This document shows positions 59,407 to 63,454 of a stretch of 64,000 nucleotides of DNA, in pieces. The notes beneath the pieces are model-generated. The model was not told where the DNA came from and made no database searches. It worked only from the letters and a program-made list of their open reading frames with translations. Positions within the stretch are counted from its first letter, which is position 1. Every line of letters starts with the position of its first letter. Location: NCBI GenBank assembly GCA_964291655.2, contig OZ219802.1, positions 1,216,001 to 1,280,000 on the forward strand, in the 5' to 3' direction. Both the position numbers and the translations under genes were made by a program. Source of the DNA: Chloroflexota bacterium (GTDB lineage Bacteria; Chloroflexota; UBA11872; VXOZ01).

Positions 59407-60834
59407 GTGAAGAGACCTATCGCAACACTCGTGCTGGGCCTCGGCCTGGCGCTTCTATCCGCCACTTCCATCGGCGCCAGCGTTGGTTGTCAGTTCGTAC
59501 TGGGCTTCAAGACGCTGCGGGACATCGTCGGTCACGAAACCGTGGGCGGATGCCTGGAGAACGAACACCACAACGCCAGTGGCGATGGCGTGCAGCACAC
59601 CACCGGTGGGCTCTTGGTCTGGCGCAAGCAGGACAACTGGACTGCCTTCACAGACGGCTATCGCACGTGGATCAACGGCCCCAACGGCCTGCAGCAACGG
59701 CTGAATACCGAGCGCTTCCCGTGGGAGCATGACTACGCACCCGGTGGCGGCGTCGCAACGCCGACCCCAACACCGATTCCACCTACTCCAACGCCTACTC
59801 CTACTCCTACTCCTACTCCTACCCCAAGGATAGATCCCCGCCTGGGCCGGGCATTGCAGGCGCTTCAGACAACATTTCTCGGCCGGACATACCACGCCTG
59901 GTTCACCGAGGCAGCACCCAGCATGACGTTTGGCACCGTGCCGGAAGGCTGGACGTCCCGCTACCATGACCCGCCGCGCAACGAGATCGTCATTGACACG
60001 GCTCTGCGCAGCGAGAGTGCCGACGTGCTCGCGGCCCTCATCGCCTGGGAAACGGTGCTGGCGGTCAATAGCAAGCGCCGCGGTCCACAAAGCGAGCGCT
60101 GGCGCTCCGGGGCAGACTGTCTGAACGAGGTGGTTGACGCCGAAGTAGCTCTCGCCCGCTGGTGGATTTCGCGCTTTGGCCATGAGGGCTTGAGCAATCC
60201 CAGGACAGCAACGGAGCGAATGCTCAATCTACTTGCACAGCGCTACCGCCAGGAATACCTGGAATTTTCGGTGCTATCGTCTTCGGCGTACCGTGAGTGG
60301 TGCGCGCAATACGGCACGCTGCCGCCTATTCCCACACCAGAGCAGTTCGTCGACCCCTTGCTTGAAACAGCGCTCCAGCTCATGCGGACCACAGCCTTCG
60401 GTGAGGACCTCTATGCGGCCTACCTGCAATCCAATGTCCATTACCTAGGCTTTGCCGACTTAAGCCGCGTTGATGTGCCGAACGTCTTGGGCATCTATGA
60501 CGCGAAACGCGGCCGCGTTTTCCTCGACGATACTCTCCGCGAAGCCAGTCAGTATGTGCGCGTGGCCGTGCTGGTGCATGAATTGTTCCACGCCCGGCCT
60601 GGTAACGACTATACAGACTATTCCACGGAGAAGTGCTTCGAGGAGGAAATACTCGCGTTCAGCGCGCAAGCGAAATGGTGGTACGAAAAATTCGGCGTAC
60701 GGGGCAAGCGCAATCCAACAAAGGCTGAGCGGCGCGAAAACTATATCTTAAGGGAGTGGCTGGCGGGACGTACCGATGACTTGGTGCGCCAGAGCGAAGG
60801 CTACCAGGAAGTATGTGCACGGCATGGTGACTAG
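59407..60834 (+). CDS. Secreted protein: CQFVLGF N-terminal module, (PT)n linker, two zincin-like repeats
   Basis: Signal peptide; CQFVLGFKTLRD...WTAFTDGYRTWINGP; VLVHELFH...EEEI in the second repeat. Confidence 0.75.
   Translation: MKRPIATLVLGLGLALLSATSIGASVGCQFVLGFKTLRDIVGHETVGGCLENEHHNASGDGVQHTTGGLLVWRKQDNWTAFTDGYRTWINGPNGLQQRLNTERFPWEHDYAPGGGVATPTPTPIPPTPTPTPTPTPTPTPRIDPRLGRALQALQTTFLGRTYHAWFTEAAPSMTFGTVPEGWTSRYHDPPRNEIVIDTALRSESADVLAALIAWETVLAVNSKRRGPQSERWRSGADCLNEVVDAEVALARWWISRFGHEGLSNPRTATERMLNLLAQRYRQEYLEFSVLSSSAYREWCAQYGTLPPIPTPEQFVDPLLETALQLMRTTAFGEDLYAAYLQSNVHYLGFADLSRVDVPNVLGIYDAKRGRVFLDDTLREASQYVRVAVLVHELFHARPGNDYTDYSTEKCFEEEILAFSAQAKWWYEKFGVRGKRNPTKAERRENYILREWLAGRTDDLVRQSEGYQEVCARHGD
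59755..59826 (+). repeat. Pro-Thr linker with (CCTACT)n microsatellite
   Basis: CCTACT repeated four times plus CCTACC; encodes TPTPTP. Confidence 0.8.
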
Positions 60835-61256
60835 GCACGCGGGACTGCAACCCGTCAAGCGGCGTTCGACCGCACGATTTGCAGGAAAGGCCGTGATTGA
60901 GTCGGGGTGCAGGGGTGCCTTTCGACCAAACGATCGGTCTGCCACGAGCAGATCTTGGCCTTGCGCTCATCAAGAGACGTAAAGCCTTCAGGTAGATAAA
61001 GGGCTCGCTCGAGCCGCCGGCGTGCTCTGTTGCATTGGTAGGCAGCGCATGTAGTCGCCCCGCTGTTGCCCATGCAGGTTGGTCCGGTTGACCGCCTTTC
61101 TCTCAATCCCCCACCGGTAGATTGCGTACACGTCCGTCGGCGTGGGCAGGCGTAATGTCACGCCAAAGGGAAAAGGATACGAATCAGCAGCGTGGTGTTT
61201 GCAGCGTTATGCTCGGTTTGAGTTAGGCAGAGACAAAGGAGAGTTATGCCAAGCGC

Positions 61257-61534
61257 CTGGCTCTCGGCATAACCGCTGTCACCTTCACCGAGAGTGCGGC
61301 GAGGGCTTGAAGCAAGCTTTGCGCTGCGCTACCATCGAAAGTGGCGAGTCCCGCGCCGAACTCTCTGACCGGGTACCTGCGCTGTCCGGCTGATGCGAGA
61401 GCAAAGGGGATTGGTGTCCTCGGGAATGCATGCCGCCGGAGCTACGATCTCGGCTGTTGTTGTGACGTTTCTCACAGGGAGAAGCCAGTGCGCGCAGGGT
61501 CTTGGCTGCTCTCCTCGCGAGAAAAGGTTTCAAC
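61257..61534 (+). ncRNA. Candidate structured leader RNA (unassigned)
   Basis: Several complementary segments and two possible pseudoknots found by eye (see findings); no family recognised with certainty. Confidence 0.4.
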
Positions 61535-62848
61535 ATGACGCAACAGAAGCACTTCAAGCAACTCGTCCGCGCCCGCATGGCGAAGACCGGCGAGAGTTAC
61601 ACCACCGCTCGCCGTCACGTACTCGCAGCCCGCACAGAAAGAGAGCAATCCTTGGCTGAGTTTCCCCACTTTCCCGGTGCCCATCCTGAGACAACCGCCC
61701 TGCGGGCGGCCCTGGCTCACGCGGGCGTTACTAATCCGGAAACCGGCGAATTCTTCACGGAATCCATGGTCTTCGGCATTGCCGGCGGCATTGGCGCCGG
61801 CGTGTTTCACTTCTACTACGCTGCCGAGGATTTTGCCAGCTTTTATGTTGCCGGTCGGCACCGCTGGCATGAGAGCGATACGTATGTGAACGACGCCTGT
61901 CTGCGCTTTGGCGTGACGCCAAGTGTCCTCGAGACTGGCGCCAAGAAACGAGCCGCCGCGCAGCTGGCTGAAGCCGTAGCAGCTACAGGCTGTGCCATTG
62001 CGTGGGTGGACATGGGACTGCTGCCGTATCGGGGCGCGCCGCCCGGCCTGGAAGGCGGGGGCTACCACGTGGTAACAGTGTATGAGATCAACGAGGACGA
62101 GGCGCTGATTGGGGACCTTACCGATGAACCCATCGCGATAGCGCTTGCTGACCTCGCTGCGGCCCGCGCCCGCATTAAGAAGCAGAAGAACCGTGTGCTC
62201 ACCGTTGCCGGCCCGCAGCAGGACCTTGTGCTGCGGGAAGCGGTGCTGGCGGGCGTCAAGGCCTGTCACGACGGACTGCAGAACCAGCGCATGAAGAACT
62301 TCACTTTGGAAGCCTTCAAGACCTGGGCGGACCGCATGCACGGCAGCAGCGGCAAGGAGAGTTGGGAGCAGGTCTTTCCCCCCGGTCATCGCCTCCTGCA
62401 AGGACTGCGCTCGGTCTATGACTTCGTCGAGCACTACCATACGGGCGGCGGTCTGATGCGCCCGCTCTATGCCGCATTCTTCCAAGAGGCGGCTGAGACG
62501 CTGGAGGAAAATGCATTCCTGCCGCTCGCAGAAGTGTACGCCGACCTGGGCAGGCTGTGGGGCGAACTGGCCAATGCGGCCCTGCCGGATGACGTGGCGC
62601 CTTTCCGTGAAGCGAAGACACTGCTCGCCCGCCGGGAAGAGATCTTCCTCAGCCAAGGCCTCGCCGCAACCGAGGAGATCAAGGGCATCTGGGCCCAGCT
62701 CACCGCGCTGGAACGCGACATGGGCAAGGAATTCCCCCTCACGGATGCGGAGAGCAACCAGCTCAGAGCTGAGCTAAAGGAACGCATCCTGGTAATCTAT
62801 GAAAAAGAGCGCGCCGCCCACGAAGCGCTGGGCGCCCTGGCGAACTAG
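61535..62848 (+). CDS. BtrH_N/DUF4872-like protein with a short basic N-terminal module
   Basis: MTQQKHFKQLVRARMAKTGESYTTARRH, then FTESMVFGIAGGIG, WVDMGLLPY...GGYHVV.VY, GGGLMRPLYA.FFQEAA. Confidence 0.75.
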   Translation: MTQQKHFKQLVRARMAKTGESYTTARRHVLAARTEREQSLAEFPHFPGAHPETTALRAALAHAGVTNPETGEFFTESMVFGIAGGIGAGVFHFYYAAEDFASFYVAGRHRWHESDTYVNDACLRFGVTPSVLETGAKKRAAAQLAEAVAATGCAIAWVDMGLLPYRGAPPGLEGGGYHVVTVYEINEDEALIGDLTDEPIAIALADLAAARARIKKQKNRVLTVAGPQQDLVLREAVLAGVKACHDGLQNQRMKNFTLEAFKTWADRMHGSSGKESWEQVFPPGHRLLQGLRSVYDFVEHYHTGGGLMRPLYAAFFQEAAETLEENAFLPLAEVYADLGRLWGELANAALPDDVAPFREAKTLLARREEIFLSQGLAATEEIKGIWAQLTALERDMGKEFPLTDAESNQLRAELKERILVIYEKERAAHEALGALAN

Positions 62849-63043: not shown

Positions 63044-63454
63044 TGCAGATGTCAGGTAATTCGTTGACAGACTTGGTAAAAGAAACATGGGAGCAGAACT
63101 CTGTGCTCGCCTACATTCATGTCATTCCGAACGGAGCGTAGCGGAGTGTCGCTCTTAGCGCGGAATCTAGAGTGCTGAGGCCGTGGAAGTGTGTTGAGCA
63201 GGGACCCTAGATTCCGCGAACAGTGTTCGACGCTACGCTCGGAATGACAAGGCCTTGTAGCACTTTCTACGGAGACCTTTGCATAACCCATCACCTATGA
63301 GGGGGAAGGATGGGATGGGGGTGAAACGAGTTGACATTATGTTATCTCTAGGTGTAAATGCGCCCTGGATTCCGGCTTTCGCCGGAATGACGGAGTTACG
63401 CAAAGGTCTCCTACGGGAGAGCGAATTCTGTCAACGAATTAGTCACCACTTACA
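63044..63454. mobile_element. MITE family C, copy 3, with a nested family B MITE
   Basis: TGCAGATGTCAGGTAATTCGTTGACAGA...TCTGTCAACGAATTAGTCACCACTTACA; ATTCC on both sides. Confidence 0.85.
63271..63411. mobile_element. MITE family B nested in family C
   Basis: GGAGACCTTTGCATAACC...GTTACGCAAAGGTCTCC flanked by TAC/TAC. Confidence 0.82.

Follow-up and report, generated by a model that had tools for sequence, protein, structure and literature searches.

In Escherichia coli, the ribosomal proteins S15 (rpsO), L20 (rpmI-rplT) and S4 (alpha operon), as well as the threonyl-tRNA synthetase (ThrRS; thrS), repress their own synthesis through structured or pseudoknotted leaders of their own mRNAs. In a stretch of 64,000 nucleotides (nt) from the genome of a Chloroflexota bacterium (contig OZ219802.1; this whole stretch is hereafter called the window), we analysed a cassette in which a promoter-like box and a leader RNA of about 195 nt precede a gene whose product begins with a basic module of 31 amino acids (aa). 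This cassette seems to work most like the r-protein and ThrRS-type autogenous leaders, without being a member of that group. As in these systems, a folded and often pseudoknotted leader would lie over the ribosome-binding site (RBS), the downstream product would be the effector, and there is one leader per gene. However, in the described systems a normal functional domain binds a mimic of rRNA or tRNA, whereas the presumed binder would here be a 31-aa tag carried by three unrelated classes of proteins.

Other described systems can be compared with the cassette. The Rop (Rom) protein of ColE1, which acts with RNA I and RNA II, offers a small helical-hairpin protein, a kissing helix of 7 bases and the idea of a kiss stabilised by a protein, but its helices have about 25 residues, against about 17 here, and the kiss is here intramolecular, within an mRNA leader. 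Moreover, the module has no sequence or fold match to Rop, and no Rop entry occurs among the 51 Foldseek matches listed at E ≤ 10. The ZTP (pfl) riboswitch consists of two subdomains with a variable linker and a long-range pseudoknot, while the purine riboswitch relies on loop-loop docking. The leader resembles both by a conserved 5' domain, a variable linker, a docked 3' hairpin and what would be control at the RBS; it differs from them by the lack of an Rfam match and by downstream genes that share a peptide tag and not a pathway. Finally, in lambda N-boxB, HIV Tat-TAR and Rev-RRE, a short basic helical peptide is a self-contained and graftable unit of RNA recognition, as the module may be. 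These peptides serve viral antitermination or export, whereas here a two-helix hairpin with a TGE-x-Y turn accompanies a double pseudoknot of 195 nt, and both are encoded by cellular organisms from several phyla.

Co-occurrence of the leader RNA and the N-terminal module

The gene and its module are located as follows; here and below, coordinates are positions in the window and all features lie on the forward strand.

61535-61627, forward: coding region of the module, residues 1-31 (MTQQKHFKQLVRARMAKTGESYTTARRHVLA), an Arg/Lys-rich helical hairpin
61535-62848, forward: whole gene (ATG at 61535), 437 aa, composed of the module, a linker, BtrH_N (residues 50-194) and DUF4872 (residues 206-349)

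We scanned the GTDB species genomes with a peptide pattern of the module. At least 600 stretches matched, 582 of which were confirmed, and the analysis was carried out on the best 80 loci. According to the record titles, these loci belong to Chloroflexota, Actinomycetota, Gemmatimonadota, Acidobacteriota, Planctomycetota and metagenome-assembled genomes of "Heliomicrobium". We then searched them with R1, a covariance model of the 5' domain of the leader. R1 gave same-strand hits at E ≤ 0.01 in 72 of the 80 loci, the ends of these hits lying about 70-180 nt 5' of the start codon. Among the remaining eight, four display weaker hits at the same place (E between 0.03 and 1.1), two present the motif and the kissing pair described below when examined by eye, one has only 45 nt of upstream DNA and one shows nothing.

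The proteins encoded downstream are diverse. The C-terminal parts from the best 80 loci fall into three clusters without BLASTP relationship (46, 28 and 4 loci), plus two short open reading frames (ORFs), and Pfam names them BtrH_N with DUF4872 (43), AHSA1 (20), DUF4287 (17) and WD40 (4). The RNA is present in each of the three clusters, which have the module alone in common and no shared metabolic theme. Two genes, L099 (an ORF of 36 aa) and L103 (64 aa), end right after the module; these may be stand-alone modules, frameshifted genes or contig fragments.

The same association is found at the scale of genomes. In 98 genomes of the class of the window, R1 gave 23 hits, all of them before module genes; 20 are loci on which the model was built and 3 are new, one of these, from another family, preceding a DUF4287-type gene. 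In five actinobacterial genomes (about 46 Mb) harbouring eight module genes, 6 out of 6 genome-wide R1 hits lie 85-180 nt upstream of six of these genes, and the leaders of the other two were missed by the genome filter and hit in the locus search. In the genome of the window itself, the leader DNA and the module are each present once and R1 hits once, so that no family of copies within this genome is available for comparison. Its BtrH paralogue has neither the module nor the RNA, and the same is true of the orthologues in two genomes of the same genus (G010 and G011). For the BtrH homologues of a further family, R1 hits were found in none of 19 genomes, and the module has no significant match in the three of these genomes that were checked. 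The RNA is thus found exclusively before genes with the N-terminal module, whatever their C-terminal domains. One R1 hit (29.9 bits, E = 0.004) located within a module-less ORF exceeding 462 aa was rejected, being probably due to chance among the 151 genomes of the phylum that were searched.

The orthologues of G010 and G011 (L017 and L018, respectively; 78% identity) start at V-P/L-D-S/A-P-H-F-P-G, i.e. right after the position of the module and linker, and each has a strong Shine-Dalgarno (SD) sequence of its own. Their upstream regions differ, with a repeat resembling a miniature inverted-repeat transposable element (MITE) in one and tandem repeats of about 45 nt in the other, which suggests two separate replacements.

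We also searched for the module in protein databases. With residues 1-40 as a query against 1.84 billion representative sequences, phmmer found 577 clusters at E ≤ 0.001. Among the 150 matches listed, most begin at residue 1, in proteins of 39 to 449 aa. A word-indexed search found the module on BtrH_N/DUF4872, AHSA1, DUF4287, LRR_4 and unannotated proteins; DUF4287 is located C-terminal to the module and does not overlap it. An earlier note on this DNA, made from the sequence alone, had suggested that the module caps unrelated proteins, often behind leaders with a similar motif. The protein searches and the C-terminal clustering bear this out, and the leaders do share a GCAAAGGGG box. Its broader proposal, an RNA paired with a basic N-terminal tag, agrees with the co-occurrence counts, which extend over unrelated proteins and several phyla. 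The gene itself had been described as BtrH-like, rightly so: its product matches BtrH_N with 53.8 bits and DUF4872 with 72.5 bits, above the curated Pfam cut-offs of 29.7 and 28 bits, respectively, while its match to NCBIfam DarH is far under the cut-off of that family.

AlphaFold2, run with an alignment of 23 rows, predicts the module as a helical hairpin formed by residues 3-18 and 22-39, with a mean predicted local distance difference test score of 91. Residues M1, K8, R12, R14, M15, T18, G19, E20 and Y22 are invariant. In the codons of the module, the variability reaches 1.23 bits at third positions, versus 0.73 and 0.52 bits at the other two, and invariant residues are encoded by synonymous codons. 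Selection therefore acts on the peptide. Residues 1-45 match no Pfam family at E ≤ 10 and no NCBIfam family at E ≤ 1. Likewise, a profile search of the PDB with the module gave no hit at E ≤ 10, and residues 1-40 have no usable match in the ESM Atlas. Foldseek found no hit in the PDB at E ≤ 0.001, only non-significant helical hairpins of HU, IHF, RecR and AmiR at E > 3. A likeness of the RARM stretch to the ribosomal protein bL34 (PF00468) was considered and rejected: hhalign against 12 bL34 sequences gave a probability of 0.67% over 8 columns, covering RARM only. The predicted complex of two copies of the module scored 0.00 (mark 0.42), which counts neither for nor against dimerisation.

Limits and fold of the leader

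The element covers positions 61341-61534 (about 195 nt) and is a promoter-proximal leader. The parts of the promoter-like box and of the leader are the following (P, paired helix; PK, pseudoknot):

61307-61335, forward: promoter-like box, TTGAAG (61307-12), a 17-nt spacer and TACCAT (61330-35)
61343-46 with 61354-57, forward: P1 hairpin, GGCG/CGCC, with the 7-nt loop AGTCCCG; the GGC/GCC pairs are retained in 72 to 74 of 74 leaders
61349-52 with 61422-25, forward: PK1, in which TCCC of the P1 loop pairs with GGGA right after P4
61361-65 with 61397-61401, forward: P2, CTCTC/GAGAG around P3; 5 out of 5 pairs change on both sides, with 98.6% of cells paired (74 leaders)
61369-75 with 61383-89, plus the pair G61367-C61390, forward: P3, with the 7-nt loop CCTGCGC (61376-82); 7 out of 7 pairs change on both sides and 14 versions of the loop are found
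61376-82 with 61492-98, forward: PK2, a kissing loop between the P3 loop CCTGCGC and its exact reverse complement GCGCAGG in the apical loop of P6
61401-09, forward: conserved GCAAAGGGG box, which runs into P4; A.AGG.G is present in at least 90% of 74 leaders
61406-11 with 61416-21, forward: P4 hairpin, GGGGAT/GTCCTC; 4 pairs with changes on both sides, 98.6% of cells paired
61426-61461, forward: linker of variable length between the 5' domain and the RBS hairpin
61462-73 with 61519-31, forward: P5, the RBS-covering helix, GTGAC and TTTCTC with GAGAAA..GGTTTC; an SD-like AAGG is located at 61524-27
61478-87 with 61503-14, forward: P6 hairpin, GGAGA and AGCCA with TGGCT..TCTCC; its apical loop contains GCGCAGG (61492-98)

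The limits of the leader were deduced from orthologues of the gene, which are found in 16 out of 16 genomes of the same genus, in 6 out of 6 genomes of a second family (58-59% protein identity) and in 4 out of 4 genomes of a third one (37-42%). When the 330 nt upstream of 19 module-bearing orthologues were aligned, two nearly invariant blocks appeared (about 61307-61425 and 61462-61534), both of them more conserved than the coding sequence. This excess of conservation over the coding sequence is also found for the leader in 20 orthologues from two families (protein identity of 58%). Upstream of about 61300, the sequence is unalignable even with a relative of 96% identity.

Within the first block, TTG and TAnnnT are retained in 19 out of 19 aligned orthologue leaders, the flanks further upstream being unalignable. 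Among 74 leaders from diverse phyla, TAnnnT ends 6-9 nt 5' of P1 in 57 cases (58 in the scanned window of 5-12 nt), compared with 21 of 1036 background windows, and a complete TTGnnn-N16-19-TAnnnT is present in 17. A scanner based on the sigma-70 consensus called no promoter in 60835-61700, the box having 8 matches out of 12; the promoter is called because of conservation only. The 5' end of the leader RNA would then lie near 61341-43.

The helices were drawn from RNAalifold and pair counts on 20 orthologues, and R1 was aligned to 74 matches from diverse phyla. In these 74 leaders, 96.5% of the cells of the 5' domain are paired and changes on both sides are found in 19 of its 23 pairs (227 cells). 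None of 500 shuffles reaches any of the five measures used. Since this alignment was fitted to the model, it favours the structure. Two other results point in the same direction: controls in which the structure was slid along the alignment are only 36-62% paired, and an independent MAFFT alignment of the 20 orthologues is 98.7% paired, with 5 pairs showing double changes. In addition, about 15 unpaired positions are retained in at least 90% of the 74 leaders. For the 3' domain, a model built from the 20 close orthologues (R2) was too narrow, giving right-strand hits at E ≤ 1 in only 7 of 83 loci, and its statistics were obtained by scripts instead. In the 20 orthologues, 98.1% of the cells of P5 are paired and one pair changes on both sides.

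The two pseudoknots were assessed in the same 74 leaders. For PK1, the helix between the cognate P1 loop and tail scores at least 5 in 43 leaders (58%), versus 22% of 5142 non-cognate pairings. Its compensatory versions are many (e.g. TCCTT/AAGGA, CAACC/GGTTG and CGACCC/GGGTCG), the P1 loop pairing with 4-7 nt after P4. For PK2, 66 of the 74 leaders contain, in the interval from the 5' domain to the start codon, a sequence exactly reverse-complementary to their own P3 loop. Six of the other eight pair over 7/7 positions if G-T pairs are counted (72 of 74 in total), one pairs over 6/7 and one is unclear. As a control, P3 loops of other versions were matched in only 23 of 743 tests. With the PK2 site held unpaired, this site falls in a hairpin loop in 74 out of 74 constrained folds, mostly in a loop of exactly 7 nt. 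Covariation thus supports both pseudoknots and the four helices of the 5' domain.

Some genomes carry more than one cassette. In one Actinokineospora genome, three cassettes (L137, L139 and L141) have the P3 loops TCCACGC, CCCACGC and CTCGCGC, whereas two cassettes of one Lentzea genome (L136 and L140) have the same P3 loop. Orthogonal kissing pairs within one genome are possible, and not a rule. As to the linker, three leaders of the same genus as the window (L013, L015 and L016) present an insertion of about 45 nt able to form an extra hairpin (GTGCAGC...GCTGCAC), and in another genus the linker is almost entirely deleted.

The covering of the RBS was measured by pairing the best SD-like pentamer with the segment located 5' of the P6 loop. 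At least 4 of its 5 positions are paired in 43 of the 74 leaders, versus 189 of 740 (26%) when the 5' segment is shuffled; with at least 3 of 5 positions, the figures are 61 of 74 versus 309 of 740 (42%). This support for a sequestration of the RBS is moderate, not overwhelming.

The earlier note had described the leader as rich in pairings and pseudoknotted. The complementary words it listed are all present at the positions it gave, and about half of the pairings it drew from them have no support. By folding of the single sequence, the stability does not exceed chance, with z-scores of the minimum free energy of +0.11 (61257-61540), +1.23 (61341-61540) and -0.30 (reverse strand), and such folding mis-folds the 5' domain. 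Three of the proposed stems coincide with helices supported by covariation, i.e. CTCTC/GAGAG with P2, the CCGG stems with P3, and GGAGAAGCCA with TGGCT..TCTCC before the RBS with P6. The others are not supported. The hairpin and pseudoknot at 61261-61299 are located upstream of the promoter-like -35 and -10 boxes, where even the orthologue of 96% identity is unalignable. The proposed GAAA hairpin (61332-44) falls on the -10 box and the probable transcript start, and its pairing is not retained in orthologues. A kink-turn at the internal loop between P2 and P3 was rejected, the 3' strand of this loop being variable. AGTCCC/GGGATT and GCGCC/GGTGT give way to a pairing of the P1 loop with GGGA at 61422-25. 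The leader is pseudoknotted through PK1 and PK2, which had been overlooked together with the promoter; the two pseudoknots proposed at the time have no support. Similarly, the structured leader is real and shorter than claimed, beginning about 85 nt after 61257, where the note placed its start, and measuring about 195 nt instead of about 275.

The RNA had also been presumed undescribed, and no family of Rfam 15 matches it. In the region 60500-62000, cmscan at E ≤ 10 found only a 15-nt fragment of ALIL, with 10.7 bits for a gathering threshold of 50, and nothing was found on the leader in 20 diverse leaders at E ≤ 1. The upstream regions of the module-bearing genes share a structure, and there is no sign of a decayed gene. 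In the main texts of PMC and bioRxiv, we found no earlier description of the RNA or of the module; motif lists in supplements could hold the RNA unseen, and subscription journals lie outside this search. The leader is a new RNA family. Alone, it is a widespread class of structured leader absent from Rfam, if one considers the at least 600 stretches matching the peptide pattern (582 confirmed), and its two pseudoknots backed by covariation make it well suited to structural and mechanistic studies.

Proposed control of translation and rival explanations

The co-occurrence of the RNA and the module, together with a fold that covers the RBS, leads us to propose that the module recognises the folded leader of its own mRNA by binding and represses its translation. 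We give this reading a probability of about one half, and the cassette would probably represent a new variant of autogenous control. The unit comprises the promoter, the leader RNA and the 31-aa N-terminal module. In the leader, the 5' domain (P1 to P4) is closed by PK1 and followed by the variable linker and the long P5/P6 hairpin, which pairs with the SD region at its base and with the P3 loop through its apical loop (PK2). With both pseudoknots formed, the docked fold would hold the RBS shut. Once made, the module would bind the folded leader, the candidate sites being the invariant AC, CAAAGGGG and loop nucleotides, or the loop-loop helix. Binding would stabilise the shut state, either in trans or co-translationally on the message being read, resulting in autogenous translational repression. 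As the RNA and the tag are adjacent, the pair could work as a portable cassette before unrelated proteins.

Because the module stands strictly at residue 1 and is followed by variable linkers, a capture of the leader in cis by the nascent protein is possible. One may go further and imagine that the tag, which emerges first, captures the leader of its own mRNA, perhaps by clamping the 7-bp loop-loop helix, so that each message would either be shut off once a given number of rounds is reached, as by a burst limiter working only in cis, or stay tethered to its product, and that the cassette has moved in this form before at least three families in at least five phyla. We regard this extension as speculative and rather doubtful.

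Several observations weigh against repression by the module. One module gene, from Arthrobacter (L073), has no RNA. Pfam, NCBIfam, PDB sequence searches and Foldseek relate the module to no known RNA-binding family or fold, and its nearest look-alikes, which are non-significant, are helical hairpins from HU, IHF and RecR, all of them DNA-binding proteins. Strict pairing of the RBS is found in only 58% of the leaders. The RNA and the module are separated by few nucleotides, and their co-inheritance and co-loss could be plain linkage; the losses in G010 and G011 may each be a single deletion. Finally, a compact 5' domain with a double pseudoknot and invariant unpaired bases also resembles a ligand-binding aptamer.

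This last resemblance underlies the idea of a riboswitch-type or factor-sensing leader, in which the 5' domain would bind a small molecule, an ion or a host factor, and the docking of the RBS hairpin would report it. The module would then be a separate functional tag, e.g. for nucleic-acid binding or interaction, which the proteins require in that same situation. The closure of the 5' domain by a pseudoknot, its invariant unpaired nucleotides (about 15 in at least 90% of the 74 leaders) and a variable linker leading to a docking hairpin that doubles as an expression platform all suit such an RNA, which would be a new class given the absence of an Rfam match. However, what the downstream proteins (BtrH-like, SRPBCC/DUF4287 and WD40) have in common is the module and not a pathway, the RNA co-occurs with the module rather than with the BtrH domain, and there is no transporter or biosynthetic gene among the 80 loci. 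We consider a riboswitch unlikely, although it is the foremost of the rival explanations. The retention of the same unpaired nucleotides exceeds what a plain throttle would need, and it is one reason to find distinctly unlikely a constitutive element that keeps expression low or guards the 5' end of the message, linked to the module as an old 5' gene segment joined to different C-terminal domains. The RNA and the module are, moreover, under strong and separate purifying selection across phyla, and the module begins at residue 1 in most of the 150 matches listed. Such an element has the merit of simplicity: a fold covering the RBS requires no partner, and adjacency accounts for both co-occurrence and co-loss.

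Two other explanations keep the module at the centre. In a stable ribonucleoprotein, the module would keep the protein attached to its leader, either whole or as a processed fragment, and the RNA would be a scaffold or an address for variable effectors. The same co-occurrence of RNA and module would be expected, and the linkers that follow the module, variable and often rich in Pro and Ala, look like tethers. Yet the RNA overlaps the RBS, which without processing makes it inseparable from translation control, while no terminator or processing signal is seen between the 5' domain and the RBS, and there is one RNA per gene, without free-standing copies; we judge this explanation improbable. According to the other, the first 31 residues would pause the ribosome from within the exit tunnel and the leader would respond. 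The strictly N-terminal position of the module and its length, about that of the tunnel, are what one would expect of such a nascent-peptide mechanism. However, known arrest peptides are usually encoded by separate upstream ORFs, and the module is confidently predicted to fold into a hairpin of two helices joined by a conserved turn, so that a pausing peptide is hardly credible here.

If the module is indeed the ligand of the leader, the cassette would be, to our knowledge, the first bacterial case of a short RNA-binding tag and its cognate leader forming a transferable autoregulatory cassette on unrelated proteins. It would then parallel, in nature, the tethers engineered from lambda N-boxB and MS2 and could serve as a compact, orthogonal part for translational control. 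The tag-bearing DUF4872, DUF4287 and SRPBCC proteins would also gain a first clue to their function.

Surroundings of the gene

The upstream gene ends at 60834, leaving a spacer of 700 nt before the module gene. This neighbour (59407-60834) encodes a protein of 475 aa with a Thr/Pro-rich repeat (PTPTPIPPTPTPTPTPTPTPTP) and a weak match to DUF6782, a putative metallopeptidase (22.5 bits for a Pfam cut-off of 27). The first part of the spacer (60835-61306, about 470 nt) is unalignable with the relative of 96% identity (L004), which suggests a rearrangement breakpoint just 5' of the cassette. It contains short unsupported ORFs and two terminator-like hairpins, a number equal to the chance expectation.

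Downstream of the gene, MITE-like inverted repeats built from the words GTCATTCCGA.. and ..TCGGAATGAC are located at 63100-63260 and 63330-63420. A similar inverted repeat is found at the orthologue of G010, where the leader and the module are missing (positions 1345-1475 of the oriented L017).

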